Assembly: GCA_964569265.1 (NCBI GenBank)
Contig: CAZMTO010000002.1
Coordinates: 6,102 to 70,101, forward strand
Origin: an uncultured Peptococcaceae bacterium
GTDB lineage: Bacteria; Bacillota; Dehalobacteriia; UBA4068; UBA4997
Reading direction: 5' to 3'
DNA length: 64,000 nucleotides
Part shown: positions 6,060 through 24,593 of the stretch, in pieces
How positions within the stretch are numbered: the first letter of the stretch is position 1
How the letters are laid out: every line of letters starts with the position of its first letter
The notes under the pieces: model-generated
What the model saw: only the letters and a program-made list of their open reading frames with translations
The model's database searches: none
Told to the model about the DNA's origin: nothing
Program-made: the position numbers and the translations under genes

Positions 6060-6097
6060 TCAGAGCTGTGCCAAGTGGGTGCGGCTCTGATTTTTTT
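6060..6097 (+). terminator. Second terminator-like hairpin.
   Basis: CAGAGCTGTGC / GTGCGGCTCTG stem (11 bp, 3 G-U wobbles), 7-nt loop, then T7. Confidence 0.5.
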
Positions 6098-6129
6098 GTA
6101 AAAAAGTTTAAAAATTTGCGTAAAAAGAC

Positions 6130-6159
6130 TTGTTTTTTTTTTTTTTTTGATGTATCATT
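6130..6159 (+). promoter_or_regulatory. Candidate sigma-A promoter whose spacer is a T17 homopolymer.
   Basis: TTGTTT (6130-6135), an 18-nt spacer consisting almost entirely of the T run 6133-6149, then TATCAT (6154-6159). It lies ~35 nt upstream of riboswitch P1. Confidence 0.4.
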
Positions 6160-6192
6160 AGATTAAAGCACTAAAATCGACAAATTTCATAC

Positions 6193-6397
6193 GCAGTTAA
6201 GTGTCGCTATGGGTGGTAAAAGTCCATAGTGGTGAAAAGGGAAGTCCGGTGAAAATCCGGTACGGGGCCGCCGCTGTAACGGTTGCTTCATCAAGGGTGA
6301 AAGCCCGCCATTGCTCTGCTTGGGTGCAGGGTGAGAAGGTTAGATGAAGCTGTGTAGCTAATGCTATAACCTAAAGTCAGAAGACCTGCTTAACTGT
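6193..6397 (+). promoter_or_regulatory. Cobalamin (B12) riboswitch aptamer.
   Basis: P1 is CAGTTAAG (6194-6201) paired with CTTAACTG (6389-6396). Conserved core: GGGAAGTCCGGTGAAAATCCGGTACGGGGCCGCCGCTGTAACGG (6238-6282). 3' element: AGTCAGAAGACCTGC (6375-6389). These match the RF00174 consensus features as I remember them. Confidence 0.85.
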
Positions 6398-6457
6398 TGG
6401 GCTTGTACCTGCGCACAAGGGGCAAGCCGCAATTTTTTGTATACGGTAAAAACGGCA

Positions 6458-6491
6458 CCGCTATCAAGGTTCACTTGGTGGCGGCTTTTTT
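6458..6491 (+). terminator. Riboswitch expression-platform terminator (second of two tandem candidates).
   Basis: CCGCTATCAAG / CTTGGTGGCGG stem, GTTCA loop, then CTTTTTT. An earlier candidate, GGCTTG..CAAGCC plus T6, sits at ~6399-6440. Confidence 0.65.
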
Positions 6492-6562
6492 GTGCCAAAA
6501 ATCTGCCGTGGCTTTAGGGCGCGGCAGTTAAAATAGATACATAAAAATTATTAGGGGGAACA

Positions 6563-9500
6563 ATGATGAAAACTAAAGCCTGGCTAAAAAAATGCCTATG
6601 CTATGTGTTGATGTTGGCCATGATATTATCGGCCGGGTGGCCGACAGGTGTTGCTATGGCGGCAGACAACGTGCTGGGTGTAAGCTTTACGCAGGTAGAT
6701 GACGATTTGGTGCAAGCGAGCCTTTTGCCGCAAGCTGACGATGCGGTGGTGCTGGCGTCCGGGGATGAGTATGATCCTGGCGAATTGGTGCGTGTTTCGA
6801 TTGTTTTAGAAGATGCAGCGACTATTCAGGCGGGCTACAGTATTAACGCTGTTGCCGAAAACGTCCGCGCTATGAGCTACCGTCAAAAGCTGAAGGCGGA
6901 GCAAAACCAAATAAAGCGCGCCATAGAAGCCGCCCTGGGTGATGACCTGAAAGTAAAGTGGAACCTGACTCTGGCTGCTAACCTGATGTCGGCTGAGGTA
7001 GAAGTTGGGCAGATAGATACCATACGCGCTGTAGACGGTGTAAAGGATGTTGTTATCGAGCAGCAGTATCAGCCGATGGCAACCGCCCAAACCGATGATG
7101 TTGCCCGGCCGCAGATGACGATATCTACCGGTATGACCGGTATGCAGAACGCCTGGCAAAATGGGTATACCGGCGCAGGTTCTCGTGTGGCAATAATTGA
7201 CACCGGTATAGATGTTGATCACCAGTCTTTTAATGGGGCGGCGTTAGAATACGCTTTGGCTAAAAACGCTGCTGCCAAGGGTGTTGACGAAGCGGAGTAT
7301 CTGGCCGGGCTTAATTTGCTGGATGCTGCCAAGGTAGATGCTGTGAGTTCGGAATTAAACGTTACCGCTATTAACAACCAGGCTAACGGCACTAATATGT
7401 ATCACAGCAGCAAGCTGCCCTTTGCCTTTAACTATGTAGATCAATCTTATGAATATGTTGACCACAACAAAGATTCGCAGACCGACCACGGCTCTCATGT
7501 GGCCGGTATTGCGGCGGCTAACCGTTATATAGAAAAAGACGGCGCTATGGCAGATGCCATAGATACGGTAATGGTGGCAGGGCAGGCACCTGATGCCCAG
7601 CTGCTGGTGATGAAGGTTTTTGGTATGAACGGCGGCGCTTATGATTCGGACTATATGGCCGCTATTGAAGATGCCATTGTTTTGGGAGCCGATTCTATCA
7701 ACCTTTCTCTGGGCAGCAGCGCCAACGGTTTTTCTACTGCCGGTGTTTATCAGCAAATTATGGAAAGCCTTACTGATGCCGGGGCGGTAGTGTGTATGGC
7801 AGCCGGCAACGATGGTAATTTTGCCGAAAATGCCTATACTGCCAAAAGCACGGGTGGTTCCGGTTTGCTTTATACCGATGACGTTATGTACAGCCATATG
7901 GGCAGCCCCAGTTCTTTTACTAATTCTATGTCGGTTGCTTCGGTAGATAACCAGGGCATTATCAGTGATTCGTTTTTATCGTTTGGGCAGGGCGATGACC
8001 TGTTTACGGTAGGTTACAGCGAAACTCTTTACAACGATATGAAGTCTATGCGCAGCCTTGATACCGCTGCCGAGGGCGGTACAGAGTATGAATTTGTGCT
8101 GGTGCCGGGCCTTGGCTACCGCGAGGATTACGATGGTATTGATGTAAGCGGCAAAATTGCCTTTGTATCGCGTGGGGATACACCTTTTTATGAAAAAGCC
8201 ACCATTGCCGTTGAACAGGGGGCAATCGCCACTGTTATTTATAACAATGTAGGCGGCAGTATGGGTATGGATATGACTGACTATCACGAAGCAGCACCGG
8301 CGGTATCTATTACCAAAGACGATGCCGAAAAAATTAAGGCTATGGCCGATGAGCTGGTAAGTGATATTGACGAGATATACTACGGCGGTAAAATGCGTGT
8401 TAATGGCACTTTAAGCCTTATAGCGGGTGACAAAAACAGCTACACCATGAGCTCCTTCAGTTCTTGGGGCAGTACCGGAGATTTGGCCTTAAAGCCGGAA
8501 ATAACCGCACCCGGCGGCAGTATTTATTCGGTAAATGGGTCGCAGACAGCACCCGATGGTTACAAAATTAACAGCGGTACATCTATGGCTACGCCGCAGG
8601 TGGCCGGTATAGCTGCCGCTATTGGTCAATACATAAGAGAACACAAGCTGACCGAAAAATTCGGACACAGTGCGCGGCAAATTGCTCAGTCGCTGCTTAT
8701 GGCTACGGCTATACCGCTAAAGGATGACAATGGCAACTATTACCCCCTGTTGCAGCAGGGTGCCGGCTTGGCTAACGGCGAAAACGCCATAAATGCCGGG
8801 GCTTATATTTTGATGAGCGAGGGTGCAAGCCCCAGTTGGCAGGACGGCAAAGTAAAGGCCGAATTGGGTGATGACCCTGAGCGCACCGGTGTTTATGAAT
8901 TTGGCTTTACACTTTATAATACCGAAAACATCGCTAAAACCTATCAGCTTGCAGCCGAATTGTTTACGCAGGCTGTAGCCGAATATCCGTCGGCACCCGG
9001 CTTGACAACTACGGCGGAATATGCCTTAAAAACCACAACACCGCTGGATTCTTCTGCTACCTTTACTGCCAACGGCACCAATATTGGCAGCACGCTTGCT
9101 GTTCCTGCCAATGGCAGTGTAACGGTGCAGGCCAAGGTTAGTGTAACACCCAAGGGTAAGGCCTGGCTGGAAGAACACTACCAAAAGGGCACGTATATTC
9201 AGGGGTTTGTATTTGCCCGACCGCTGGCTAATGCCGACGGAGCAATAAGCGGCAGTACGCTGCACATTCCGCTGTTTGCCTTTTACGGTAACTGGACTGA
9301 CCCGGCAATGTATGATGCGGTAAACTGGCAAAACGGCAGCAGCACCGGCACGTATTCCACACCGTTTATCTCCGATGCTTCTCGTACCAGTTACGCAGTT
9401 AACTATGACGTTAATTCTCCGTTGAATACAGGTTCGGCGGGCGAGACCAGCTATATCGGCACTAATCATCTGGTGATGAACAATGCCAACGGGGTGGCTT

Positions 9501-12500
9501 ATATTTTGGGTGGTAACCCGTTAGTAAAAGATGCTGTATATTTGCCGGAGCGTAACGCGGTAAGCAGCCAATCTACTGCTGCCCAGTGGGAATTTTTGCC
9601 GCTGCGTGACAGTGTTGTAAAAAAGGCACAGATAAAAAATTTAACGGCTAATACTGTTTTGCAGGAAAACACCATTGAATCGGCAGACCTTGGCGTTTGG
9701 TATAGCAAAAACGACGGTTATTGGCAGGGCGGTGTAAACACTATGCCGCTAAACCAAAGTCTGGCTGCCGTAAACGAAGGTGAACAGATAGAATTCAGCT
9801 TTGTTCGCCTGCCGGAATATTACGCTGCCGGCAAAATGGGAGAAAACAGCCCGGTAGGCACGGGCGCCCTGCTAAGCATTACGGCGGTGGTAGATGAAGC
9901 CAACCCCCAAACTCAGGATATAACCTATAACAGCAACGACAACACCCTTACTGTAAAGGCAGCAGACGAAAACTACATTGCGGCGGTTGCACTTTACAGC
10001 CGCGACGGTCAAAGGGTTATTGCCTATACCGGTGCCGATGAAACGCTGACTAAGGGGCAGGCGGGCAACTTTGTTATTGCTCTGCCCAACAAGATAGACG
10101 GTGAATATTTGTTGCAGGTTTATGACTACGCTATGAATACCGCCACCTACCGCATTGCTTTGTCTGATACTGCTATAAGCTACACCGGTGCTATGCTTGC
10201 CTATGATATGACCGATAAAGCGTGGGTGCAGGTAGACGAACAGTCGGCGCGGTTGGGTACTATTGCCAAAACTCACAGCTACACGGCGGCCACTGCTGTA
10301 GGCAGCACTGTTTATGCTATTGCCTATGGCACCGAGCTTTATGCGCTGGATATTTATCAGCCGCAAAACAGCACGCTGCTGGGCGATACCAATATCAATA
10401 TAGTAGATATGGCGTATAACGCGCAGGACGGCAGCCTGTACGGTGTAAGTGACAACAGCAAGCTGGTAAAAATAAATATGACAACCGGCAAGGCTATAGA
10501 GATTGGCACCCTGCCGATAAATACCAACACCTTAGCCTGCGATACCAAGGGTAATTTTTACAGCAACCTTTACGGCACCGGCAAGGTATACACCTACACG
10601 TTAGATGCTTTAGCTGCCGGTGATGCTGCTTATGATCTTAACGGTGACGGCGCTGTAAATATGGCCGATGTTCAGGCTATGCTGGATAACATTACCGGCA
10701 AAAAGGTGTCGGCGGCGGCTATTGATATAAACGGTGACGGTTTGACCGATACTTACGATGCGTATCTGCTGCTTGGCAAGCTGCCGGGTACGGTAAAACT
10801 GGTGGCCGATACCGGTATTGTCAGCAAATATATGCAGGCAATGGAAGCCGACCCCAACGATGATACCCTGTATTGGGCAAGCTACAGCACGCAGCCGGTA
10901 AACAGTACCGAAATTGGCTTTGCATATATGTTTAAAATAAACACGGCAACCGGCAAGTATGTAAATTGTGGTGATTTTGATAACCAGCTAAGCAGCCTGG
11001 TGATACTGGACAAGCACGCCGGCAGCGGTTATGCACCGCTTTATGACCTTGCGGATATTGCCAAGGCCGAGGCTGCCGTTGCAGACCTTGGCAGCAAAAC
11101 CTACTTAAATTCTATGGCCGAAGCTGCTGCTTTGGCGGTAAATATGGGCGTAGACAACAGCCTTAAAGACGACGCACCCAAAACCGTAACGGTGAGCATA
11201 ACAGCCGGGCAAAATATTACCAATGCTTTGTACAGGCTTAGCTACGGTGACGATATGCAGTTTGTGTCGGCGGCAAGCCCTGCCGATGTTGTAAGCATTA
11301 AGGCGGATAACAGTACATTGTGTCTGGCGGCGGCATCTGTTAACGGTGTTGCGGCCGGTGAGGCTATTGCCACCCTGACGTTTAGCACCAAAGCCTGTGC
11401 CGGTGATGTTGAGCTTGCCCGTTTAGAGGAAAACACCGCACATACCGATATTACCGAAGCTTTGATAAGTGATTCTCATATGTGGGGCAGTTGGCAGGTT
11501 ACCCAAGCGGCTACCTGTGTGGTCGATGGTGTAAAAACCCGCACCTGTGAGCTTTGCGGCAAGGCACAGACGGAAGCTATGGCTCGTGAAACCACCGCAC
11601 ATAGCTGGGGAGATTGGCAAACTGCGGTTGCCGCTACCCCAACCGGGCCCGGAGAAAAATACCGTGTGTGCGAAGAATGTGACCGACAGCAAACCGGTTA
11701 TATTTTGCCGGATACTATGTCGGCTGCCGAGCAGGACAGTGCCTTTAACCGTGTTTGGGCGCGCAAGCTTACCTTAAACTATGCGCTGATTACCGGCGCG
11801 GGCGTAAACAAGGTAGAGGCTCTGACGGCAGAAAACGATACCACGATGCGTTATTTGGTAACATTGGCGGCTGCAACCGGGGCAGATGCTCAGTTCCATA
11901 TACATATGGACCCGATTGAGCTGGTGGCCAGCGGTTTTGGTTCGGCGCTTAAAGCCAATAAAGTAGACCGTGTTACCTGGGATGATAATGATACTGAATA
12001 TGATGTGGTGCTTAGCAATGGGCTGGCGTGCCTTACGGTTTATTGCTACGCTAACGAAACCGAATGTACTCCGGTAGAAATATATTTTGCAATAGGTGAT
12101 GAAGGTGAAAATATCGGTAGCCTTAGCACTGCCGATGTGCCGGGCTTTGGTATAAATCATCTGGAAATTTGGGAAACAAGCGGTGTAAACAAGGTATATT
12201 ACATCAGCAATGATGACGAAACCGAAAATGAATGTTATATATGGCTGGATACAGCTACCCTCGATAATGCTGTTATGCAGATTAACCCGGTTCCGGACAG
12301 TGCTGCGGCAACTACCGTAAGCAGCCCCCTGTGGAGCAGCGGCCAAAAGCTTGGTGAAAACGGTATTCAACTGGCGCTTAAAAACGGTACTGCCAACGTT
12401 ACAGTTTCGGTAGACATAAATAGCTGGGGTAATGTAACCCACCGTAATTATAACCTGCACTTTAGCAATCACGCCAACCAGCCGCCTACGGTCCAAAACG

Positions 12501-12946
12501 CTGCCGGCAAGGCGCGGGTAACATTAGGCAACGCCTTTAGCCTTAACCTTGATACAGTGTTTGCCGACCCGGATGGTGATACCCTGAGTTACACCTATAC
12601 TGTAAACGGCGGTGAGGCGATGGCTGCCGCTGCGGACTTTAGCTTTGTGCCGCAGGCTACCGGCGATTATGTTTTGGTATTTACGGCTGACGACGGCCAA
12701 ACCGCCGGTAATAGCACCTATACGCTAACTTTAACGGTAGTTGATACGGTTATAGGTGATGTTAACAGCGACGGTGCGGTAAACGCCAAAGATGCCGCCG
12801 TGCTTAAACGCTATATTGCCAAGTGGGCAAACCTGACTATAGACCTGACAGCGGCTGACGTTAATGCCGACGGTGATATAAACGGTAAGGATACCGCTAC
12901 GCTTAAACGTTATATTGCCAAGTGGGCCGGTGTTAACCTTGGCTGA
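6563..12946 (+). CDS. Secreted S8 subtilase (cell-envelope proteinase type, PA-domain insert) with propeller-like, Cys-rich and cadherin-like modules and two dockerins.
   Basis: SD is GGGGGA. Signal peptide: MMKTKAWLKKCLCYVLMLAMILSAGWPTGVAMA. Triad motifs: VAIIDTGID, DHGSHVAGI, SGTSMATPQVAG. PA-like GKIAFVSRGD..TVIYNN. Dockerin EF-hand pairs at ~10621-10790 and ~12755-12943. Confidence 0.9.
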   Translation: MMKTKAWLKKCLCYVLMLAMILSAGWPTGVAMAADNVLGVSFTQVDDDLVQASLLPQADDAVVLASGDEYDPGELVRVSIVLEDAATIQAGYSINAVAENVRAMSYRQKLKAEQNQIKRAIEAALGDDLKVKWNLTLAANLMSAEVEVGQIDTIRAVDGVKDVVIEQQYQPMATAQTDDVARPQMTISTGMTGMQNAWQNGYTGAGSRVAIIDTGIDVDHQSFNGAALEYALAKNAAAKGVDEAEYLAGLNLLDAAKVDAVSSELNVTAINNQANGTNMYHSSKLPFAFNYVDQSYEYVDHNKDSQTDHGSHVAGIAAANRYIEKDGAMADAIDTVMVAGQAPDAQLLVMKVFGMNGGAYDSDYMAAIEDAIVLGADSINLSLGSSANGFSTAGVYQQIMESLTDAGAVVCMAAGNDGNFAENAYTAKSTGGSGLLYTDDVMYSHMGSPSSFTNSMSVASVDNQGIISDSFLSFGQGDDLFTVGYSETLYNDMKSMRSLDTAAEGGTEYEFVLVPGLGYREDYDGIDVSGKIAFVSRGDTPFYEKATIAVEQGAIATVIYNNVGGSMGMDMTDYHEAAPAVSITKDDAEKIKAMADELVSDIDEIYYGGKMRVNGTLSLIAGDKNSYTMSSFSSWGSTGDLALKPEITAPGGSIYSVNGSQTAPDGYKINSGTSMATPQVAGIAAAIGQYIREHKLTEKFGHSARQIAQSLLMATAIPLKDDNGNYYPLLQQGAGLANGENAINAGAYILMSEGASPSWQDGKVKAELGDDPERTGVYEFGFTLYNTENIAKTYQLAAELFTQAVAEYPSAPGLTTTAEYALKTTTPLDSSATFTANGTNIGSTLAVPANGSVTVQAKVSVTPKGKAWLEEHYQKGTYIQGFVFARPLANADGAISGSTLHIPLFAFYGNWTDPAMYDAVNWQNGSSTGTYSTPFISDASRTSYAVNYDVNSPLNTGSAGETSYIGTNHLVMNNANGVAYILGGNPLVKDAVYLPERNAVSSQSTAAQWEFLPLRDSVVKKAQIKNLTANTVLQENTIESADLGVWYSKNDGYWQGGVNTMPLNQSLAAVNEGEQIEFSFVRLPEYYAAGKMGENSPVGTGALLSITAVVDEANPQTQDITYNSNDNTLTVKAADENYIAAVALYSRDGQRVIAYTGADETLTKGQAGNFVIALPNKIDGEYLLQVYDYAMNTATYRIALSDTAISYTGAMLAYDMTDKAWVQVDEQSARLGTIAKTHSYTAATAVGSTVYAIAYGTELYALDIYQPQNSTLLGDTNINIVDMAYNAQDGSLYGVSDNSKLVKINMTTGKAIEIGTLPINTNTLACDTKGNFYSNLYGTGKVYTYTLDALAAGDAAYDLNGDGAVNMADVQAMLDNITGKKVSAAAIDINGDGLTDTYDAYLLLGKLPGTVKLVADTGIVSKYMQAMEADPNDDTLYWASYSTQPVNSTEIGFAYMFKINTATGKYVNCGDFDNQLSSLVILDKHAGSGYAPLYDLADIAKAEAAVADLGSKTYLNSMAEAAALAVNMGVDNSLKDDAPKTVTVSITAGQNITNALYRLSYGDDMQFVSAASPADVVSIKADNSTLCLAAASVNGVAAGEAIATLTFSTKACAGDVELARLEENTAHTDITEALISDSHMWGSWQVTQAATCVVDGVKTRTCELCGKAQTEAMARETTAHSWGDWQTAVAATPTGPGEKYRVCEECDRQQTGYILPDTMSAAEQDSAFNRVWARKLTLNYALITGAGVNKVEALTAENDTTMRYLVTLAAATGADAQFHIHMDPIELVASGFGSALKANKVDRVTWDDNDTEYDVVLSNGLACLTVYCYANETECTPVEIYFAIGDEGENIGSLSTADVPGFGINHLEIWETSGVNKVYYISNDDETENECYIWLDTATLDNAVMQINPVPDSAAATTVSSPLWSSGQKLGENGIQLALKNGTANVTVSVDINSWGNVTHRNYNLHFSNHANQPPTVQNAAGKARVTLGNAFSLNLDTVFADPDGDTLSYTYTVNGGEAMAAAADFSFVPQATGDYVLVFTADDGQTAGNSTYTLTLTVVDTVIGDVNSDGAVNAKDAAVLKRYIAKWANLTIDLTAADVNADGDINGKDTATLKRYIAKWAGVNLG

Positions 12947-12980
12947 TAATATTTAAGACAATATTTAAGGAGGAAGTGCA

Positions 12981-14192
12981 ATGATAAAATTAAAGCGTTT
13001 TTTGCCGTTTTTGCTGGCGGTGGCCCTTATGCTGGGGCTTATGGTGCCTGTAGCTTCGGCAGCCGATACTACCGGGCAAATAACGGTATCTGAGGCTGCG
13101 GGCAAACCCGGCGATACTGTTACAGTAACCGTAAATTTGGCTAAAAACCCCGGTATTATTGCCGCAGTTTTAGAAGTTGGCTATGACGAAAGCCGCTTAA
13201 AGCTTGTGGCCGTAAAAGACGGCGCCCTGCTGGCAGACAGTACTTTTTCGGACAGCTTGGCACGCAACCCCTATGTTTTAAGCTGGAACGATGCTTTGTC
13301 CAGCAGTAACATAACCACTACCGGTGTGCTGGCTACCCTTACTTTTGAAATTTTAAGTGATGCCAAGGCCGGCGAAGCCGCAGTAACAGTGGATTTTACC
13401 CCCGATAATCTGTTTGACTGGGAGTTAAACAACGTGCCGTTTACTGCAACTGACGGCGTGGTAAAGGTAACTGCCAAGGGCAGCAGCACGGTTAGCGGCG
13501 GCGGTGGCGGCGGTGCTGTTACTCCATCTAAGGATAATAATAAAGCCGATAATATCAAGGCCGATGAAAACGCCGACAGCAAAAAAGATGACGATCTGCC
13601 GGCGGGTAATTTGTATAAAAAATATACCGATTTAGCTGATGATGGCTGGTATCGCAGCGGTGTGGAATATATGCTGAACAACGGCTATATGAACGGTGTT
13701 TCGTCTACAGCGTTTGACCTTGACGGTGCCGTTACCCGCGCACAGTTTGTAACTATTTTGTACCGTTATGCCGGCAGCCCCGCAGTTAGCGGCAGCAGCC
13801 CCTTTGCCGATGTAAGCAGCAATGCCTGGTATGGCAAAGCAGTTATGTGGGGTGCTGCCAACGGCGTGGTAAAGGGTGTTAGCGCTAACCGCTTTGACCC
13901 CGATGCACCGCTTACCAGAGAACAACTTGCTACCCAGCTATACCGTTATGATAAAGCAGCGGCCCTGGCGGTTGACCACCTTAAAGCTTACAGCGATGCA
14001 GCCAAAATAAGCGACTATGCCAAGCAGGCTATGAACTGGGCTGTGGGCGGCAAAATCATCAACGGCATTACCGCTAATGTGCTTGCCCCGCAAAACACTG
14101 CCACCCGCGGGCAAACCGCCGTGCTGCTTAGCCGCTATTTTACGGCGGCTTCGGCGGTGCCGGTACCGCAAACCCCGGCAGAAAGTAAATAG
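12981..14192 (+). CDS. Anchoring scaffoldin-like protein: signal peptide, one cohesin, Gly/acidic linker, three SLH repeats.
   Basis: SD is AAGGAGGAAG. Cohesin-like sequence TGQITVSEAAGKPGDTVTVTVNLAKNPGIIAAVLEVGYDESRLKL...GVLATLTFEILSDAKAGEAAV (~13075-13470). SLH motifs: YTDLADDGWYRSGVEYM, FADVSSNAWYGKAVMWG, YSDAAKISDYAKQAMNWA. Confidence 0.85.
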   Translation: MIKLKRFLPFLLAVALMLGLMVPVASAADTTGQITVSEAAGKPGDTVTVTVNLAKNPGIIAAVLEVGYDESRLKLVAVKDGALLADSTFSDSLARNPYVLSWNDALSSSNITTTGVLATLTFEILSDAKAGEAAVTVDFTPDNLFDWELNNVPFTATDGVVKVTAKGSSTVSGGGGGGAVTPSKDNNKADNIKADENADSKKDDDLPAGNLYKKYTDLADDGWYRSGVEYMLNNGYMNGVSSTAFDLDGAVTRAQFVTILYRYAGSPAVSGSSPFADVSSNAWYGKAVMWGAANGVVKGVSANRFDPDAPLTREQLATQLYRYDKAAALAVDHLKAYSDAAKISDYAKQAMNWAVGGKIINGITANVLAPQNTATRGQTAVLLSRYFTAASAVPVPQTPAESK

Positions 14193-14327
14193 GTTTATAA
14201 GCTTAGTTTATAAGTATTGAAGATATATAATACCTTGGCAAGGGGGCGATGCGTTACAGATAATGTCGGAGTACGGATGTTTGTAAATTTTAAGTTGCAG
14301 CAAAAAAGATTAAGAAAGGAAATTGTT

Positions 14328-17300: not shown

Positions 17301-19415
17301 AACCAAACCTGGGGCGATTGGCAACAGAGTGCTGTGTTTAGCGGCTTAAAGCCCAACACCAGGTATTACTTCCAGGCCAAGTATGCTGCTGGCGCGGCTG
17401 CCTGGGTAGATTCGGCGGAAAGCAACACGGTTATGGCTACCACCGTTATTGACGAAAACGCACCGATGTTTACTGTTGGTCAGGTTAGTGGCCGCACCGG
17501 TGAAGAAGTTAAAGTAAATATCGAAATTAAGAACAACCCCGGTATTGCATCGGTTGCTATGGACGTAGGCTATGATGCAGATAAGCTGGAGTTGGTTGGC
17601 GCACTGGATACCAAGCTGTTGCCCAACGGCACCTTAAACAACGATGTTTCGTCTAACCCCTATACCCTGTACTGGGAAGATACCACCGCTGCTGAAAATA
17701 TGACGGCTAACGGCGTGTTGGCCACCCTTACCTTTAAGGTAAAGGCCGACTGTGCTGTTGGTGATGAAGCAGTTATTACTGTTAGCTACGACCCGGAAAA
17801 TGTATTTGACCTGAATTTGAACAATATAGAATTTGATACTGTTAACGGTGCAATTTTGGTGGTAGACCACAAGTGGAATGCACCCACCTACAAGTGGAGC
17901 AGTGATTATACCACCTGTACGGCTACCCGCACCTGCGGTGATGTTGGCTGCGAAGCTTTGAGTGAAACCGAAACTGTAGAAGCCACTGTAGAGCGCACCG
18001 AAGCAACCGAAACCGAAAACGGCAGTGCGGTTTATACCGCTGCATTTACCAACCCGGCATTTACTACCCAAACCTATACCGAAACTTTGTATGCCATTAA
18101 GGCCGAATTTGCGGTAGAAAAGGCAGAGGTTTGCCCCGGTACCACGGTAGATATTGATATCAATATTAACGAAAACCCCGGCATTACAACTGCCGAGCTT
18201 TATGTTGATTATAACGGCGATAAGCTGGAGCTGATTAACGTAAAAGATGCCGGCCTGCTTAACGGTGCGGTATTTAGCGACAGCTATGCCAAAAAACCCT
18301 ATTATCTTTCCTGGAACGATGCACTTGCCAAAGAAAACAACACCGCCAACGGCACTGTTGCTACCCTTACCTTTAAAGTAAAGGAAGCCTGTGTAATCGG
18401 TGAGAGCGCACAGGTTTCGGTAACCTTTGGTAATGTTTACGATTGGCAGATGCAGGATGTTATCTTCCGCGCGGTAAACGGCGGCGTAACTGTAACCGAC
18501 CATAAATGGGGCGATGCCGCTTACGTTTGGAGTGCTGACCACACGGTTTGCACTGCCCAAAGCGTATGTGCCTGCGGAGAAAAACTGACCGAAAAGGCTA
18601 CGGCCGAAATGACTGCGACAGCATCTACCTGTAGCGTTGCCGGCAACAAAACCTACACGGCCAAGTTTAACAACAGCACCTTTGCCGAACAGACTTATGT
18701 TGAAGAGCTGCCTCTGGCTGCACATAATTACGTAGTAGGCGGCAGTGCCGACGGTGCTGCACTGATTTATACCTGTAGCGAATGTGGCAATGTTGTTAGC
18801 AAAAATGCTACTGAAAATACCGCAATTTTGGCAGTATCGGATGCTGCTGGCAGTGTTGATGAAGAATTGCAGGTAGTGATTTCGGCCAAAAACAACCCCG
18901 GCATTATTGCCGCTACCTTGCAGCTTGGTTATGATGAAGAAGTTTTGCAGTTGGTAAAGGCAGAAAACCTGAGCAGCCTTAAGAGCCTGCGGGTAGACGG
19001 CCATACACTGTATTTGGGCGGCACTAACGAAACCGCCGATGCCATTGCCGACGGTGCCATTATTAAGCTTACCTTTAAGGCTTTGGCAGCCTGCGATGGC
19101 GGCACGGCAGTAAGCCTTAGCTACAAACCTGCCGATATTTATAACTATGATATGGAAGCCGTAGAATTTGCTGTTGATAACGGTGTTGTTGTTGCCAGCA
19201 TTTATTTGCTGGGTGATGTAAACGACGACGGCAGCGTTGATATTAAGGACGTTACCGTTTTGCGCCGTTATCTGGCAGAATGGGAAAATTATGCCGACAT
19301 TGTTAAACTGGCAGCCGACGTAGATGTTAACGGCGAAATTAACATTAAGGATGCTACTATCCTGCGCCGTTACCTGGCCGGTTGGGACGGTGTAGAATTA
19401 GGCAAGGCTTCGTAA
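14328..19415 (+). CDS. Adaptor scaffoldin-like giant protein: Fn3-like repeats, divergent DUF4430-like domain, beta-helix-like region, three cohesins separated by Cys-rich modules, C-terminal dockerin.
   Basis: I chose the start at MSKYTKKTISWLLTLAMMFTMVMPAGA (signal peptide, SD AAAGGAA) rather than the ORF-track 14217. Cohesins at ~17461-17860, 18108-18495 and 18826-19200 (NNPGIASVAMDVGYDADKLEL.., ENPGITTAELYVDYNGDKLEL.., NNPGIIAATLQLGYDEEVLQL..). Dockerin: GDVNDDGSVDIKDVTVLRRYLAEW..VDVNGEINIKDATILRRYLAGW. Confidence 0.88.
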   Translation: MSKYTKKTISWLLTLAMMFTMVMPAGAVEIVPQDGATVAEAAEPLADGETEEGNTEEGAAQPIAAPVWPEDMNLKTTYYSISFNQPAACPDTNYELVYRIATSAEALESETEWSTYGQTGFGDTFADYKERASMDLLAAGTTYYVQAAYRTGDWGEYVYSAYSDVKEMATASAPESVTVDFSIVAATKPSATPEISADSADYKGAQYFTWYGNSNMALVTGTSVQGAAQAGFDTLGVSVTVPNSKLSVTMPDYLGGHELARKSYGNDSNWYVTVMRDGVVIKETDIFGIIEPHDGEKVILHYVFNYKVELISCNNEGISGKFVDAPAINTENYKAADAVKKLIEKIDPLGDITVASKPAIDAADAAYNELADEAKAYVSNYSDLTAAKERLAKIESGEIVTLAAPQVTVKAEAATADSVTVNIPAAEADAAAVIKTRCSLDGVTWTEWADAAAGDITISNLQSEKSYRVQAYYKTSDSTKYANSAVAEVTAATIAYEVSTVNVGTLSELVNAIKGADTSVQTLIKLTADIELPSEGAPYNAAISPAGANIILDGDGHKVGLYSGNQYSAVVHIGANSTVTLRNIKMALLRTNDEWTLPNNSWSNLVRFVGDNGVLNVEKDAVLYSNGNGRGIIYNGALSWRPAALANATVNIYGGVIHSTGDNAYSRIINLNGKGTVNIIPNGDVMLEGLIENTEGINVKPGTAIKSGAALSSDFATYTPFTTEELANYNAGAALTYGAGVRFLVGDTQLGDLTAPVVLPAADENAANADVTYVISDDKVVFTVINRDALGVLMFRQDNNIWRHSADADYRQFVDGNTFTFSGLNKDTDYTFYVQTASLTPAYKDAITTLNLHTTYTVNQLDKVSAITLEDKTATSIKHSVAACTQDNTAITQFRMSADGQTWGDWQDSPEFTGLQPYTDYHFQARYHAVSKYWSDSEPSETVVVRTKAAGLTAPVLAEAASARANTVTLTAPAASAEDTTAVVWYRMSADNQTWGDWQQSAVFSGLKPNTRYYFQAKYAAGAAAWVDSAESNTVMATTVIDENAPMFTVGQVSGRTGEEVKVNIEIKNNPGIASVAMDVGYDADKLELVGALDTKLLPNGTLNNDVSSNPYTLYWEDTTAAENMTANGVLATLTFKVKADCAVGDEAVITVSYDPENVFDLNLNNIEFDTVNGAILVVDHKWNAPTYKWSSDYTTCTATRTCGDVGCEALSETETVEATVERTEATETENGSAVYTAAFTNPAFTTQTYTETLYAIKAEFAVEKAEVCPGTTVDIDININENPGITTAELYVDYNGDKLELINVKDAGLLNGAVFSDSYAKKPYYLSWNDALAKENNTANGTVATLTFKVKEACVIGESAQVSVTFGNVYDWQMQDVIFRAVNGGVTVTDHKWGDAAYVWSADHTVCTAQSVCACGEKLTEKATAEMTATASTCSVAGNKTYTAKFNNSTFAEQTYVEELPLAAHNYVVGGSADGAALIYTCSECGNVVSKNATENTAILAVSDAAGSVDEELQVVISAKNNPGIIAATLQLGYDEEVLQLVKAENLSSLKSLRVDGHTLYLGGTNETADAIADGAIIKLTFKALAACDGGTAVSLSYKPADIYNYDMEAVEFAVDNGVVVASIYLLGDVNDDGSVDIKDVTVLRRYLAEWENYADIVKLAADVDVNGEINIKDATILRRYLAGWDGVELGKAS

Positions 19416-19541
19416 GAAGCGCAAAGCTTTATCCACTGCGGGCACGGGCAATAGTCTGTGCCCGCCTTGTGGGTTATTTTGATAATTGCGGCAGGGTGCC
19501 ATCGGGTACGTTTGCCTGCACCCATTTTAAGGAGAATTTTT

Positions 19542-21599
19542 ATGAGATCGTACAGTAAAAGCCTTGTGTTGCTGGTGTTTACGCTGTGTCTGCTGTTTGG
19601 TCAGGCGTATGCGGCATTGGCAGCCGATGCTGTGGCAATTTCAATAAACCAAACGCAAAATTTGGCGGTGGGCTATGCCAAGCCGCTGGTATTAACAGCG
19701 GCCCCGGCAGGTGCTGCCCTGCCTGCGGTGGAATGGAAGTCGAGCAACGAGGCAGTGGCTACCGTTGACCAAAACGGTGTGGTTACCGGTGTTAAGGCCG
19801 GCAAGGCCACCATTACGGCAACTGCCGGGTCTAATGCCGATATTACGGCTTCGGTAGATTTGGTGGTGCGTAATTCGTATCGCTATAAAATAGGCTGGGG
19901 CGGCAACTTTAATCAGGCTGATAACAACCAGACTACCACCGCTGCCCTGCCGATAAACCCCAACAAGGTACAAAAAGTCTGGCAGGCTCACGTAGGCAAC
20001 AGCACCGTAGCTATTGTGGATGATTATGTGTACACCTATAACGGTACCAGCCTTAACGGCGAAAACAACGGCGGTGTGCTTTATAAAATTGACAAAAACA
20101 CCGGCAATGTGGTAAACAGCCTGCAGTGCAGCGGCAGTTGTAACCTTTATTACAGCTATACTATTTATGGCGGCGGCCTGCTTTATGTAAGCTGTGTGGG
20201 TTCGGTAATGGCTTTTGATTTGGATTCTTTTGCGCTGCTGTGGACGGCAGAAACCGACCCGGCAGTAAATTATCCCACCATACAGTATGTTAACAACTGT
20301 GTGGTTACTAACGGTTATGTGTTAGACGCTGTTACCGGTGCTAAAAAAGCTACCCTGCCCGGTGGGTATTCATATTCCAGCGGGGTAGAAAAAAACGGCC
20401 TGTTTTATATTGCGGCGGCAGACGGCAAAATTTACGCTTTTAGCACTGCCGATTGGAGTGTTAAATATTCGCTTAAATTTGGCGACGGCAACGGCGGCAA
20501 CCAGCCGGGTGTAGCCTTTGCCGGCAACCGCCTTTATTGGGGTTCGGTCGGCAGCGGCAATTTGTATTCGGTGCAGATAAACGATACTACCGGTGCTTTT
20601 GCCGAAGATACGTTAAAAACCGTGGCCTGCGGGGTAAGCGGCCCCTGTGTGCCGGTAATTGCCAACGGCAGAATATATTTGGCCGGCACGCATAACGGCA
20701 ACGGTGCAGTAGCAGTGGTAAGGGCTGCCGATATGAGCTTGCAGTATGTGGCTTACGGTGCAGTAGAAAAAATACAAAGTACACCTATAGTACGCATTGT
20801 AACTGCCGATGGCCCGGTGGTATCGGCGCTGGCGGCAGAGCCTGCGGCTGTTGGTGTGGCCGAAGGTAATTATGTGTTTATGCAGGATTACGGTTCGGCA
20901 GCATCACCCAGCCGCATATTATTGCTGGCGGATAATGCAGCAGCCACTGCCGGCAGCCTTAATAAGCTGTTTACGGTAGACAACGAAAACTGGGCATACG
21001 AGCAAATTGCCTGCGACAAAGAGGGTGCTTTGTATGTTACCAATGATTCGGGTTTTTTGATAAAGTATGCAGAAGCAACGGTAAGTGTACCGACTTTTGA
21101 CACTGACCTTTCGGCTGCTGAGGTGAACTACGGTTTGGGTGCCGATGCTGCCGAATTGAGGGTAGTGGCAAGTGTAACCGATGAGGGCAGTATAAGCTAC
21201 CAATGGCAGCAAAAGTCGGCTAACGGCGTGTGGACAGATATTGCCAATGCGACAAATGCTGCTTATACACCGGCCACCAATGCCGAAGGTACCACCTATT
21301 ATCGCTGCGTGGTAACCAACACACTTAACGGTCAGGCAGCAACGGCTACATCTAAAGCGGCCAAAATAGTGGTTGTTGCCGGCACGGTTAGCCTTACCTA
21401 CGGTGATGTTAATAACGACGGTAATATAAACGGCAAAGACGTAGCCCTGCTTAAACGCTATATTGTAAACCCTACTGATACAGATATAAATGTGGCGGCT
21501 GCCGATGTTGATGCCAACGGCAGTGTTACCGGCAAAGATGTTGCTTTGCTTAAACGCTATGTGGCCAAATGGCAGATTACCCTTGGCCCTGCGGCTTAG
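19542..21599 (+). CDS. Secreted Big_2 + PQQ-like beta-propeller + Ig-like + dockerin protein.
   Basis: Start at MRSYSKSLVLLVFTLCLLFGQAYA with SD AAGGAGA. Big_2: WKSSNEAVATVDQNGVVTGVKAGKATITA. Propeller repeats (~19960-21070) are paralogous to 2140-3260. Ig-like ISYQWQ..YYRC (~21081-21380). Dockerin: GDVNNDGNINGKDVALLKRYI..ADVDANGSVTGKDVALLKRYVAKW. Confidence 0.88.
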   Translation: MRSYSKSLVLLVFTLCLLFGQAYAALAADAVAISINQTQNLAVGYAKPLVLTAAPAGAALPAVEWKSSNEAVATVDQNGVVTGVKAGKATITATAGSNADITASVDLVVRNSYRYKIGWGGNFNQADNNQTTTAALPINPNKVQKVWQAHVGNSTVAIVDDYVYTYNGTSLNGENNGGVLYKIDKNTGNVVNSLQCSGSCNLYYSYTIYGGGLLYVSCVGSVMAFDLDSFALLWTAETDPAVNYPTIQYVNNCVVTNGYVLDAVTGAKKATLPGGYSYSSGVEKNGLFYIAAADGKIYAFSTADWSVKYSLKFGDGNGGNQPGVAFAGNRLYWGSVGSGNLYSVQINDTTGAFAEDTLKTVACGVSGPCVPVIANGRIYLAGTHNGNGAVAVVRAADMSLQYVAYGAVEKIQSTPIVRIVTADGPVVSALAAEPAAVGVAEGNYVFMQDYGSAASPSRILLLADNAAATAGSLNKLFTVDNENWAYEQIACDKEGALYVTNDSGFLIKYAEATVSVPTFDTDLSAAEVNYGLGADAAELRVVASVTDEGSISYQWQQKSANGVWTDIANATNAAYTPATNAEGTTYYRCVVTNTLNGQAATATSKAAKIVVVAGTVSLTYGDVNNDGNINGKDVALLKRYIVNPTDTDINVAAADVDANGSVTGKDVALLKRYVAKWQITLGPAA

Positions 21600-21643
21600 G
21601 CAGCAGCTTGTACAGTGGTAAAAAACACTTGGAGAAATAGTTT

Positions 21644-24217
21644 ATGAAGAAAAACAGATTATTAGGATTGTTGGCGGCTATGGTGGTTTTGCTGTGCCTG
21701 CTTTGTAATGCGGCATTGGCGGCGGTGCAGCCTGCAGCGGTAATATCGTCGGTGAGCGGCCAGCCCGGTGACGAGGTTAAGGTGACGGTAAGCCTGCAAA
21801 ACAACCCCGGTATTATTGCGGCCGAGCTTAAATTGGCATATGACAATGATAAGCTGGAGCTTAAAAAAGCTGAAACCGGCAACCTGTTAACGGATTGTGT
21901 GTTTGGTGATAATTTAGGCAAAACCCCGTACTATATGGCGTGGGATGAGGCCTGGCGGCGTGAAAATATGTCGGCAGACGGCGTTTTGACTACCCTTACC
22001 TTTAAGATAAAGGCAAGCTGCAAGGCAGGTGATACGGCGGCTTTAAGCATAACATCATTAAAGGCTCACAATACCCTGCTTAAAGACGTTAACTTTACGA
22101 CTGCGCCCAGCAGTGTAAGTGTTGGCGGGCACACCTGGGGCAAGGCTGCATACACGTGGTCGGCTGACCATATGAGCTGCACGGCAGGCTGTTATTGTAC
22201 GGATGCCGATTGTAATTATTTTGCCAACGAAACCGTAAGCGCGGTGGTAAGCACTACGCCTGCCACCTGTACGGCAGACGGGGTTAAGGTGTATACTGCC
22301 AAATTTAGCAGCGCGGTCTTTGTTGAGCAGACCTTTACCGAGGTGCTTAAAGCTACGGGGCATAAATTTGCGGTGGTTGGCAGCACTGATGACAGCCTTA
22401 CATACCGTTGCAGCGGCTGCGGTGCCGAAAAAACCGAAAGTATCGCTAAGGGCAGCCCTACATTGTTGGTTGCCGATGCTGCCGGTAAAGTTGGCGACGA
22501 AGTGAGTGTAGCTGTAAGTCTTAAAGATAATCCGGGCATTGTAAGCCTGGCGTTTAACCTTAATTATGACCACAGTAAGCTGGCCCTGCAAAAGGTGGCC
22601 GATGCTGGGCTTTTGCCCAACGGCAGCTTTAGCAGTGATTTGTCGGCTGACCCATATGTGTTATATTGGGAGGATACGACAGCAACTGCAAACCGCACAG
22701 AAAACGGAACGCTGGCTATGTTAACCTTTAAAGTTTTATCGGCGGCGGCCGGCAATGATGTTGATGTAAAGCTGAGTTATGATCCTGAAAATATTTTTGA
22801 TTATAATTTGGTTAATGTGCCTTTTGCTATTGATAATGGCGTGATTACCGTGGCAGCAGCCGAAGGTGGTACCGGTGGCGGCACGGGCGGTGGTATCGGT
22901 GGTGGCACAGGCGGTGGCACAGGTGGCGGCACGATAGATGTCAGCTTTCGGCTGATAGGTTGTACGCCGGCAACTGACGGTGACGTTGATTTTAGCGAGG
23001 GCGTACCGGCCGGCCTGCACGGAGCCGAATATCAGACGTGGATAAAAACCACTGCGTATACGCTGGATAAAGGCTCTACCGCTAAAGACCTGTTTGAATT
23101 GGCACTGAAAAATAACGGCCTTAGCTGGGACGGCAGCAGCAGTTGGGTTACCTCGATAACGGCACCGGCAGTTTTGGGCGGCTACGAGCTGGCGCAGCAG
23201 GACAACGGTGCGAATTCCGGCTGGATGTATACGGTAAACGGCAAGCACCCCAACAAGGCATTTAGTGAATATGTGCTGAAAAATAACGATAAGGTTATTT
23301 GGCATTACATTAACGACTACCAATACGAACAGGAAGATTGGGTAGGCGGTTCGCCGCACGGCAACAAGGATACCTTTAATTTATGGTTGCAGGCTAAGGA
23401 CACCAACCCGACAGGTACAACTGCCGGTGGTGGCGCTGCCGGTGGCGGCGGCGGTGCAGCCGTTGACACCAAGTATACCGCGGCTGACGTAAAAGACCTG
23501 ATTGACAAGATTGGCACCGTTACCAAGGACAGCAAAAAGGCCATTGAAAAAGCCCGTGAGGCTTATGATTCGCTGACGGCTGCCCAGAAGAAGAACGTTA
23601 CCAATTATGACAAACTTACCGCCGCTGAAAAAGCTTACACCGAGCTTACCGGCGAAAAGATAGACACTACCAAACTGCCGTTTATCGATGTAGCAAAGGG
23701 TAGCTGGTACTATGACGCGATTAAGGCAATGTACGACAAGGGCTTGATGAACGGTGAAAGTGCTACCAAGTTTATGCCGAACAACAAGCTTAGCCGTGCA
23801 ATGTTGGTAACTATTCTGTACCGTATGCAGAATGAACCGAGCATTAGCACAACTGCACTGTTCAACGACGTTGCTAATGGCCAGTGGTACACCAATGCCG
23901 TTGCTTGGGCAAATGCCAACAACGTTGTTAACGGCGTAGGCGAGGGTAAGTTTGCACCTAATGATAGCGTAACCCGCCAGGAAATGGCAGCAATGCTGTA
24001 CCGTTACGCTAAGGCCACCGGTATGGACACTACCGCAACCGCTTCTCTCAGTAACTTTAAGGATAGCGCCAAGGTAGCCGATTGGGCAACCGATGCTATG
24101 AAGTGGGCAGTTGGCAGCGGCCTGATGAAGGGCAACGAGGACGGCACTATCAACCCGATGGGCACTGCAACACGTGCAGAAGTAGCAACTGTAATTGTTC
24201 GCTTGCTTAGCAAGTAG
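21644..24217 (+). CDS. Anchoring scaffoldin-like protein: two cohesins, Cys-rich module, Gly linker, canonical DUF4430 (transcobalamin-like) domain, helical hairpin, three SLH.
   Basis: Signal peptide: MKKNRLLGLLAAMVVLLCLLCNAALA. Cohesins at ~21742-22120 and ~22460-22855. DUF4430 signature: IDVSFRLIG...GANSGWMYTVNGKHPNKAFSEYVLKNNDKVIWHYINDY (22934-23320). The SLH end is near-identical to the end of the first gene. Confidence 0.9.
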   Translation: MKKNRLLGLLAAMVVLLCLLCNAALAAVQPAAVISSVSGQPGDEVKVTVSLQNNPGIIAAELKLAYDNDKLELKKAETGNLLTDCVFGDNLGKTPYYMAWDEAWRRENMSADGVLTTLTFKIKASCKAGDTAALSITSLKAHNTLLKDVNFTTAPSSVSVGGHTWGKAAYTWSADHMSCTAGCYCTDADCNYFANETVSAVVSTTPATCTADGVKVYTAKFSSAVFVEQTFTEVLKATGHKFAVVGSTDDSLTYRCSGCGAEKTESIAKGSPTLLVADAAGKVGDEVSVAVSLKDNPGIVSLAFNLNYDHSKLALQKVADAGLLPNGSFSSDLSADPYVLYWEDTTATANRTENGTLAMLTFKVLSAAAGNDVDVKLSYDPENIFDYNLVNVPFAIDNGVITVAAAEGGTGGGTGGGIGGGTGGGTGGGTIDVSFRLIGCTPATDGDVDFSEGVPAGLHGAEYQTWIKTTAYTLDKGSTAKDLFELALKNNGLSWDGSSSWVTSITAPAVLGGYELAQQDNGANSGWMYTVNGKHPNKAFSEYVLKNNDKVIWHYINDYQYEQEDWVGGSPHGNKDTFNLWLQAKDTNPTGTTAGGGAAGGGGGAAVDTKYTAADVKDLIDKIGTVTKDSKKAIEKAREAYDSLTAAQKKNVTNYDKLTAAEKAYTELTGEKIDTTKLPFIDVAKGSWYYDAIKAMYDKGLMNGESATKFMPNNKLSRAMLVTILYRMQNEPSISTTALFNDVANGQWYTNAVAWANANNVVNGVGEGKFAPNDSVTRQEMAAMLYRYAKATGMDTTATASLSNFKDSAKVADWATDAMKWAVGSGLMKGNEDGTINPMGTATRAEVATVIVRLLSK

Positions 24218-24593
24218 AATTGCAATAGCGCCAGAAGGGACAACTGCACACCATCTGCTGTGTCGAGCTTGCATTTTTCTCGCGACGCGCACTATCTGTA
24301 CGCCTCTGGCGACTCGAAATTCTATTCCTTGCATCTGTACCACTCTTGCAATTCTATTAGGGTGGTGCAGGGCAGGGCTGCGGTGTCATATAATTTCAAT
24401 CAAGGTTGCCTGCCAAGGTATACAGGGTGGTGGGCGGGAATAGATAATCCTTTATTCAGCTTTGATTGAAAAAACTTACAAACACTGCGCCGCAGGGCAA
24501 GGCTGCTGTGTGAAAATGACAAAAAAAACGGAGTTAGGCTTTGCGGCTTGGCTCCGTTTTTTTTGTGTAAAAATGCCGGTAATATTGCAAAAA
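23465..24593 (+). repeat. Copy 2 of the ~1.1-kb dispersed direct repeat.
   Basis: See 4930-6020. An 81-nt stretch (24294-24374) is identical to 5739-5819. Confidence 0.9.
24528..24564 (+). terminator. Rho-independent terminator closing the giant-protein operon.
   Basis: ACGGAGTTAGGC / GCTTGGCTCCGT 12-bp stem followed by T8. Confidence 0.8.

Follow-up and report, generated by a model that had tools for sequence, protein, structure and literature searches.

A cobalamin riboswitch-led cohesin-dockerin operon with transcobalamin-like modules: a candidate corrinoid-acquisition complex of the Gram-positive cell surface

We analyzed a 64,000-nucleotide (nt) stretch of DNA, hereafter the window, from an uncultured Peptococcaceae bacterium (GenBank assembly GCA_964569265.1, contig CAZMTO010000002.1), in which an initial annotation, made from the sequence alone, had proposed a cell-surface system for corrinoid capture. 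The system in question is a 17.7-kb operon that lies downstream of a cobalamin riboswitch and consists of five co-directional open reading frames (ORFs) for secreted proteins, designated o1 to o5, which encode cohesins, dockerins, S-layer homology (SLH) anchors, a subtilase, a propeller and modules related to the transcobalamin beta domain. Its probable role is to encode, under repression by B12, a complex that is anchored to the wall in the manner of a cellulosome and acquires corrinoids. Taken as a whole, the initial interpretation is partly supported by the evidence presented below.

Results

A search with the Rfam covariance model identified a cobalamin riboswitch aptamer (RF00174) at 6183-6407 on the plus strand, where the initial annotation had placed one at 6193-6397. 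The element scored 70.4 bits against a curated gathering score of 31.5 (E 2.4e-15), aligned over the full length of the aptamer model (positions 1-189 of 189), and was the sole riboswitch that Rfam found in the 64-kb window. Between the aptamer and the o1 start codon, at 6396-6491 on the same strand, lies an expression platform of two tandem hairpins, each with a U-run, resembling intrinsic terminators (about 6396-6439 and 6454-6491); a terminator scan listed 6458-6484 with its T-run, and RNA folding of 6380-6500 recovered both hairpins (z-score -2.6), in agreement with the terminator hairpins of the initial annotation. An aptamer followed by hairpins with U-runs and then a start codon is the usual arrangement of a transcription-terminating "off" switch, and from this pattern alone the platform is predicted to be able to switch off the downstream genes. 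The gene upstream of the riboswitch ends at 5682 and has its own terminators at about 5960-5990 and 6058-6092; because these stand between the two, we treat the surface operon as separate from that gene.

A candidate sigma-70 promoter (TTGTTT, 18 nt, TATCAT) was tentatively read from the sequence at 6130-6159 on the plus strand; a consensus promoter scan did not list this site. Most of its spacer is a run of 17 T (6133-6149). On a contig from another sample (L001, about positions 185-212) the run is 2 T shorter, the 16.9 kb after it are identical, and the leader differs by one base. The difference in length could reflect phase-variable or rheostat-like promoter strength arising from slipped-strand mispairing, or it could be a homopolymer assembly error.

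The five ORFs, the gaps between them and the terminator that closes the operon were found as initially described, all on the plus strand: o1 (6563-12946, 2127 amino acids [aa]), o2 (12981-14192, 403 aa), o3 (14328-19415, 1695 aa), o4 (19542-21599, 685 aa) and o5 (21644-24217, 857 aa), separated by 34, 135, 126 and 44 nt, and followed by a GC-rich hairpin between an A-run and a T-run at 24528-24564, seen in the sequence. For o3 the ORF list uses an upstream TTG at 14217, and the signal peptide begins at the ATG at 14328. Judged by eye, all five N-termini resemble Sec signal peptides, as had been claimed.

Pfam and custom hidden Markov models (HMMs) found six cohesins, distributed over o2, o3 and o5, and four dockerins, two in o1 and one each in o3 and o4, with duplicated calcium-binding DxNxDGxxxxxD repeats visible in the dockerins. 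The two kinds of module thus occur on complementary proteins, and the cellulosome-like cohesin, dockerin and SLH architecture read from the sequence was recovered by both sets of models. The protein o2 is a short anchor with one cohesin (nt about 13077-13487, Pfam E 1e-17) and three SLH repeats (E 1e-25). Its larger counterpart o5 carries two cohesins (21722-22129 and 22448-22858), a Gly-rich linker, a DUF4430 module, a helical linker and three SLH repeats (23681-24214). The adaptor scaffoldin o3 consists of fn3-like repeats, a DUF4430-like module, a stretch that matches no family, three cohesins (17454-17867, 18093-18500 and 18813-19202) and a C-terminal dockerin (19194-19412).

The DUF4430 module of o5 (22919-23395) matched PF14478 with 51.2 bits against a cut-off of 23.8 (E 1.7e-13). 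When this module was modeled with AlphaFold2 from nine aligned sequences (predicted local distance difference test score, pLDDT, 75.7), the top 19 Foldseek matches in the PDB were exclusively transcobalamin, haptocorrin, intrinsic factor and the bacterial DUF4430 structure 3U7Z, with E values of 3.5e-5 to 1e-3; the vertebrate matches fall on the beta domain that contacts B12, and the TM-score against the isolated beta domain 5np4 was 0.71. The model is therefore consistent with a beta-grasp fold of the transcobalamin type, an assignment that comes from matches of the whole fold and not from residue-by-residue inspection of the hairpin insert, and it bears out the equation of DUF4430 with the transcobalamin and intrinsic-factor beta domain on which the initial annotation had relied. 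In o3, a divergent module at nt about 14853-15263 aligned end to end with DUF4430 proteins, and hhalign placed it with the DUF4430 profile at 93% probability (E 2.8e-7, 126 columns); by profile comparison it is a divergent DUF4430 homologue. The earlier claim that both scaffold proteins carry such modules thus stands by Pfam for o5 and by hhalign for o3.

A further arrangement of this domain was seen in an unrelated Firmicutes contig (L003, positions 1-10813), which codes for an SLH protein of 2514 aa that matches DUF4430 weakly at two places, another SLH protein, CbiQ, an ATPase fused to an S component, and a small DUF4430 protein. Riboswitches were not found in this part of the contig. Wall-anchored DUF4430 giants beside energy-coupling factor (ECF) transporter genes therefore exist without cohesins and dockerins.

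The two putative cargo proteins are o1 and o4. The Pfam models identified in o1 an S8 domain (aa 204-735; Peptidase_S8, PF00082, 138 bits, E 5e-40) with a PA insert (aa 512-591; PF02225, 62.7 bits), followed by fn3_5. The catalytic Asp, His and Ser motifs (VAIIDTG, HGSHVAG and GTSMATP) are intact in the translation, and with the PA insert they place o1 among S8 peptidases of the cell-envelope-proteinase type; the nearest NCBIfam family is an LPXTG-anchored serine peptidase family, and the score is far under its cut-off. After fn3_5 come about 1200 residues of unassigned fold, a PKD-like domain and a C-terminal dockerin (aa 2065-2127, nt 12755-12943). The dockerin HMM also found another dockerin inside the protein, at about aa 1351-1415 (nt about 10613-10807), which the initial annotation had not listed and which adjoins a short stretch with a weak DUF4394 match; with two dockerins, the protease may be held at two points. 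Searches of PDB sequences with the unassigned segments of o1 and o3 gave no match. In o4, Pfam recognized Big_2, Dockerin_1 and, weakly, a PQQ-like propeller, and the order of its parts is Big_2, propeller (nt about 19875-21077), immunoglobulin (Ig)-like domain and dockerin (21378-21596). The propeller was modeled by AlphaFold2 (pLDDT 88.7) as an 8-bladed structure of the PQQ/BamB type, for which the best Foldseek matches were BamB, YxaL and tetrathionate hydrolase (E about 1e-14). Nearly all of some 60 relatives of o4, at 40-69% identity, have a dockerin, and most also have Big_2.

Comparison with other genomes and metagenomes indicated that this gene set recurs in at least four diverged lineages. 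A subtilase of about 2100 aa with S8, PA and dockerin modules, one or more cohesin scaffoldins with DUF4430, a Big_2-propeller-dockerin protein and a cohesin-DUF4430 protein are present in loci L007, L008/L009, L170, L171, L173 and L175. The set recurs in these loci at a subtilase identity of 42-70%; compared with o1 itself, the orthologous subtilases are 37-42% identical. DUF4430 modules are kept in the scaffoldins of all orthologous operons. Homologues come from metagenome-assembled genomes (MAGs) of gut and rumen Oscillospiraceae, Faecousia-like and related Clostridia.

Cohesins and dockerins were clustered using all modules of five operons. The scaffoldin dockerins formed a class of their own (74-87% identical between genomes), and the C-terminal dockerins of the subtilase and the propeller protein grouped per genome in L007, L170 and L171 (60-67% identical), the corresponding o1 and o4 pair of the window being 55% identical. 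A third dockerin class comprised the internal dockerins of the subtilases, which are 86% identical between L007 and L171 and 51% identical to that of the window. Among the cohesins, the one nearest the scaffoldin's dockerin is a class apart from the remaining ones. Such a pattern would be expected if both cargo dockerins had a common cohesin specificity, distinct from that of the scaffoldin dockerin for the anchor cohesin of o2 or o5, and it fits a hierarchical assembly in which clustering by itself does not assign the partners.

The initial annotation had suggested that homologous loci be surveyed for the riboswitch, and this survey found RF00174 in L091 and L176 besides the window, such that a cobalamin riboswitch lies upstream of an operon-type subtilase in 3/3 lineages in which that region could be read. 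The subtilase encoded on the metagenome contig L091 shares 41% identity with o1 over 1523 aa and 44% with its L171 counterpart; we counted it as operon-type because its distance to o1 equals that of confirmed operon orthologues. The order there is a promoter-like element, RF00174 (170-415, 48.4 bits, E 7e-9), a terminator and the subtilase start. In L176, where the N-terminus of the subtilase is 92% identical to that of L171 over an overlap of 203 aa, a plus-strand riboswitch at 636-839 (89.7 bits) leads a lipoprotein of two tandem DUF4430-like repeats. Then come a second cobalamin-riboswitch-like element with a terminator (1769-1965, plus strand; 25 bits, E 0.0018, under the gathering score), a small cytoplasmic protein annotated as 'HNH_repeat', and the subtilase. 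A third riboswitch, at 377-538 on the minus strand (42.3 bits), leads an ECF T-like gene. Three elements of the cobalamin-riboswitch type are thus found within 1.6 kb in L176, and a homologue of its small 'HNH_repeat' protein also precedes the subtilase in L010. The loci L176, L177, L010 and L178 were found through N-terminal subtilase fragments on other contigs; in L177 and L010 the upstream sequence is short and another gene precedes the subtilase, and these two were not counted either way.

Paralogous subtilases served as controls. In a scan of GTDB genomes anchored on the subtilase N-terminus, nearly everything returned was an SLH-anchored paralogue from MAGs of Oscillospiraceae, Faecousia and related groups, and a metagenome scan anchored on the middle of o1 likewise returned paralogues, with the exception of L091. 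Rfam found no cobalamin riboswitch in 14 subtilase-paralogue loci, mostly SLH-anchored, with their upstream regions included, nor was one present in L178, where a subtilase at the level of the paralogues occurs with a helix-turn-helix regulator. About 150 further loci gave no riboswitch in a heuristic multi-block motif scan, which is of limited sensitivity and gave nothing above noise beyond the known sites; a stricter B12-box expression missed the riboswitch of L091, and a custom covariance model built from the riboswitch core of the window, which matched only itself in 2.6 Mb, was dropped. Because the paralogue loci lack the riboswitch, it travels with the version of the subtilase that occurs with cohesins, dockerins and DUF4430 and not with the family at large, and the comparison strongly supports a link to B12 that is conserved and not incidental.

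These data bear on the possibility that the locus encodes a wall complex for adhesion or proteolysis in general, or else a conventional cellulosome or amylosome, and has come to lie behind a riboswitch by an accident of gene order. Dockerin-bearing peptidases and S8- or propeller-like scaffoldins of no assigned function, without a B12 link, occur in cellulosome producers (PMC11557425), and large parts of o1 and o3 belong to no recognizable family, both of which would suit this explanation. We nevertheless regard it as most improbable. The riboswitch association recurs across lineages at about 41-44% protein identity, and terminators isolate the operon from the gene upstream. Furthermore, Pfam scans of the five whole proteins and of segments at E<=1 found no glycoside hydrolase (GH) or carbohydrate-binding module (CBM) family, as the initial annotation had also concluded; the dockerin-borne carbohydrate-active enzymes and scaffoldin CBM of a cellulosome or amylosome were thus absent by Pfam, in proteins of which several regions match no family.

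Also found in the window, about 25 kb downstream of the surface operon, was a likely partner importer operon (49083-53525, plus strand), identified by Pfam, NCBIfam and orthology to L171. It encodes a secreted DUF4430 protein (49083-49973; Pfam 65 bits, E 9e-18), an ECF T-like protein (49967-50911) without a Pfam match that is recognized by 35% identity to the T-like proteins of L171, a fused A-A' ATPase with two ABC_tran domains (50893-52608), and an S-component-like protein with an ECF-ribofla_trS/ECF_trnsprt S-like domain (52545-53525). The parts of an ECF transporter, namely S, T and two ATPase domains, are therefore all represented, T by its identity to L171 only; the identities to the L171 module are 49% for DUF4430, 35% for T, 52% for the ATPase and 39% for S. 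On the minus strand, cbiB (47853-48899; TIGR00380, above cut-off) and a cobD-like threonine-phosphate decarboxylase gene (54556-55596; best match CobD, 278 bits against a cut-off of 290.55) flank this operon. Pfam and NCBIfam thus agree with the DUF4430-headed ECF operon next to cbiB and cobD that had been read at 49083.

In one clade, represented by the loci L171 and L173, the link is direct. The surface operons of these two loci are followed on the same strand, with short gaps, by genes (L171 13561-21964, L173 13641-21998) for a 340-aa lipoprotein, a 263-aa DUF4430 protein, ECF T, A-A' and S proteins, a second T-like component, an AP_endonuc_2 protein, CobT, CobU and CobS. The 340-aa lipoprotein has a faint squalene-cyclase (alpha/alpha toroid) signature. 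An alpha/alpha toroid is the fold of the transcobalamin alpha domain, and the lipoprotein and the DUF4430 protein together look like a split bacterial transcobalamin, with an alpha and a beta part. When the window was searched by tblastn with the alpha-like lipoprotein of L171, no counterpart came up.

The strongest rival to our interpretation concerns the role of the protease. Surface proteolysis at low B12, when B12-dependent enzymes such as MetH are stalled, might supply methionine, amino acids and peptides, such that the operon would spare B12 by foraging for protein, with DUF4430 modules that are accessory or bind something else. The largest product of the operon is an active-looking S8/PA/fn3_5 subtilase related to cell-envelope proteinases, and this bacterial group has numerous SLH-anchored paralogues, which suggests a generally proteolytic lifestyle. 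Control by the riboswitch would also be explained, and there are parallels in riboswitch-controlled B12-independent isozymes: B12 riboswitches control B12-independent bypass genes such as metE and nrdDG. Foraging does not, however, account for the conservation of DUF4430 modules in all orthologous scaffoldins or for the joining of the operon to an ECF importer and cobTUS in L171 and L173. In L176 the riboswitch first controls a DUF4430 lipoprotein, and the paralogous subtilases are without riboswitches, which accompany the DUF4430 and cohesin context. On this evidence we consider foraging unlikely.

Several features of the genes around and within the operon were observed in addition. The ORF that precedes the riboswitch (1-5682) runs past the start of the window, with no in-frame stop in bases 1-48, and lies outside the control of the riboswitch at 6183. 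Its product, of more than 1877 aa, has a PQQ-like propeller, Big_2, carboxypeptidase-regulatory-like domains and SLH repeats, and shares 54% identity with o4 in the Ig-like domain. The C-terminal 250 aa of this giant SLH protein and of o5 are 94% identical (4930-5990 versus 23465-24565), and the 3' untranslated regions of the two genes are about 78% identical, terminator hairpin included, as would result if the genes for these wall-anchored proteins had recently undergone duplication or gene conversion. A DUF4430-like module considered at aa 1383-1613 of the giant protein was rejected (hhalign E 0.71). Cys-containing linker modules of about 60-90 aa, with H-x-W-G...C...C motifs and no family match, recur between cohesins and in the subtilase (o1 aa about 1640-1710; o3 aa about 1180-1255 and 1392-1490; o5 aa about 163-265).

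Many metagenomic copies of the giant subtilase have in-frame stops or frameshifts, for example at codon 861 of the L091 subtilase and at L010 2525. These are probably assembly errors, the alternative being pseudogenization. In an uncultured Clostridiales genome (L019, 10892-11205), group II intron domains (RF02001 and RF01998) lie between two tandem subtilase paralogues.

Discussion

The analysis shows a riboswitch at the head of the operon, the order and domain make-up of its genes, the folds of its modules, the conservation both of synteny and of the riboswitch, and the linkage to ECF and cob genes. From these we infer ligand binding, docking partners, protease substrates and hand-off to the transporter as follows. 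When adenosylcobalamin is plentiful, the riboswitch would favor the tandem terminators and the operon would be off; when B12 is scarce, transcription would read through. The SLH proteins o2 and o5 would bind the wall polymer and present their cohesins, the scaffoldin o3 would dock onto an anchor through its own class of dockerin, and its three cohesins would recruit the subtilase o1 and the propeller protein o4. Free corrinoids near the wall would be bound by the DUF4430 modules of o3 and o5 and handed on to the ECF importer by way of its DUF4430 protein and its S component, after which CbiB, CobD and CobT/U/S would finish or remodel the cofactor. The subtilase, in what is speculation on our part, would most plausibly degrade proteins that hold corrinoids and so release them, and the propeller may serve as a further module for binding or recognition.

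A more elaborate version of the corrinoid-acquisition reading, to which we can give only tentative and rather doubtful assent, pictures a "corrinosome", a cohesin-dockerin nanomachine of Gram-positive gut bacteria that is assembled only when B12 is scarce. The giant subtilase would free corrinoids from carrier proteins of the host or the diet, such as haptocorrin, intrinsic factor and food proteins, and a relay of DUF4430 modules and propeller would pass them to the ECF importer and the remodeling enzymes. Expression might additionally be tuned by the slippery poly-T spacer of the promoter.

A number of observations weigh against corrinoid acquisition as the function. Corrinoid binding by the window's DUF4430 modules, as by any bacterial DUF4430 domain considered here, is a prediction. 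The o3 module fails the Pfam DUF4430 model even at E<=1, by which test that part of the initial assignment does not stand, and its most conserved motif is altered from SGWMYTVNG to SNWYVTVMRDG. The comparison of the o4 propeller with BtuG, the B12-binding surface propeller of Bacteroides, did not survive as more than an analogy of fold class, since the best matches were BamB-like and 8-bladed, BtuG was absent from the top 50 fold matches, and no BtuG-related Pfam match was found in o4; neither homology nor fold likeness to the 7-bladed BtuG propeller was apparent. The ECF operon of the window has no riboswitch at the Rfam gathering score. Riboswitch conservation was read in three lineages (the window, L091 and L176), and the sequence upstream of the subtilase is unread in L007, L170, L171, L173 and L175. 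In L176, 2 kb separate the strong riboswitch from the subtilase, an interval that holds a terminator and a small gene unrelated to the system, and the link between L176 and L171 joins contigs of different samples through the 203-aa overlap only. Within the operon, a promoter-like site at 14235-14264 (10/12 matches) in the o2-o3 gap and a weak hairpin at 19460-19474 in the o3-o4 gap suggest that the downstream genes may not be wholly dependent on the riboswitch; such consensus matches occur near chance frequency in this region, and we did not rely on them.

To these is added a precedent for a different ligand. A homologous ECF-like operon of Lactobacillus sakei (lsa1836-1840), with subunits like transcobalamin alpha and beta, has been linked to heme uptake (bioRxiv 10.1101/864751), and the DUF4430 modules and ECF importer described here might by the same token capture heme or another tetrapyrrole. 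We find this distinctly improbable. Cobalamin riboswitches are present in three lineages, and a corrinoid ligand is favored over heme because the neighboring cbiB, cobD, cobT, cobU and cobS encode enzymes that act only on corrinoids.

Competition for B12-type cofactors shapes gut communities, yet Bacteroidota are the only group in which their capture outside the cell is understood. For Gram-positive Firmicutes, according to a 2026 review, such capture of cobamides "remains entirely uncharacterized" (PMC13616437). The locus is a concrete, conserved candidate for such capture in Gram-positive bacteria, with defined parts and a built-in regulatory read-out. If our interpretation is correct, the cohesin-dockerin principle, familiar from the breakdown of polysaccharides, would extend to the acquisition of micronutrients, and bacterial DUF4430 domains would gain a first physiological context. 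The locus also suggests that vitamin uptake may involve a secreted protease. The more elaborate "corrinosome", if real, would be the first cohesin-dockerin complex for cofactor piracy and a Gram-positive counterpart of the Bacteroides BtuG/H/J relay. The modules of the locus are potentially useful as B12-binding parts or as orthogonal cohesin-dockerin pairs.

Full-text literature searches retrieved no paper that ties cohesin-dockerin systems to cobalamin riboswitches or B12 capture, and DUF4430 is barely mentioned in the literature searched. The cohesin-dockerin assembly, the riboswitch control and the protease and propeller cargo appear to be undescribed. The novelty that the initial annotation had claimed therefore holds for the link between cohesin-dockerin systems and B12 and does not extend to the general idea of B12 scavenging by surface DUF4430 proteins, which dates from 2007 (PMC1796856).

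Among known systems, the closest in architecture are the cellulosomes of Acetivibrio thermocellus and A. cellulolyticus and, as a case that does not involve cellulose, the amylosome of Ruminococcus bromii. These share with the window type-I-like cohesins and dockerins, SLH anchors, an adaptor scaffoldin with several cohesins and a dockerin of its own, and cargo with C-terminal dockerins. Unlike them, the window has no detected GH or CBM, its cargo is a subtilase and a BamB-like propeller, its scaffoldins carry transcobalamin-like modules, and its operon, headed by a cobalamin riboswitch, has genomic links to genes for corrinoid salvage. The subtilase itself resembles cell-envelope proteinases such as lactocepin PrtP and streptococcal C5a peptidase-like enzymes in its S8 domain, PA insert and following fn3_5, and differs from them in having two dockerins in place of an LPXTG or SLH anchor, about 1200 extra residues of unassigned fold, and a riboswitch at the head of its operon.

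In its inferred function the locus resembles the BtuG/BtuH/BtuJ/K-BtuB relay of Bacteroides, in which several surface binders under a B12 riboswitch feed a dedicated importer. That relay is built of outer-membrane lipoproteins, the 7-bladed BtuG, DUF4465 and the TonB-dependent BtuB, whereas the window has SLH and cohesin-dockerin attachment, DUF4430 beta-grasp modules and an ECF importer, with a protease included. A relationship between BtuH and DUF4430 was considered and rejected, as BtuH is a DUF4465 protein. The modeled o5 module has the beta-domain fold of transcobalamin, intrinsic factor and haptocorrin but, unlike transcobalamin, is not fused to an alpha/alpha-toroid alpha domain; L171 and L173 encode a separate alpha-like lipoprotein. 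The partner operon, with its DUF4430 protein, T and S components and fused ATPase, is like those of the ECF-type corrinoid or tetrapyrrole importers ECF-CbrT and L. sakei Lsa1836-1840. The binders in those importers are confined to small soluble proteins or lipoproteins, in contrast to the 17.7-kb operon for a large wall-bound assembly in the window.

The outline of such a system was foreseen by Burroughs, Balaji, Iyer and Aravind (2007), who predicted from gene context that transcobalamin-like domains of bacteria, in some cases fused to propellers or Ig domains, belong to proteins that are secreted or exposed at the surface, are encoded with paralogues and CbiO/CbiQ genes, perhaps form surface complexes, and scavenge B12 or its precursors for CbiO/CbiQ transporters (PMC1796856). 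Cohesin-dockerin assembly, riboswitch control and a protease partner lie outside that prediction, and are what the operon described here would add to it.

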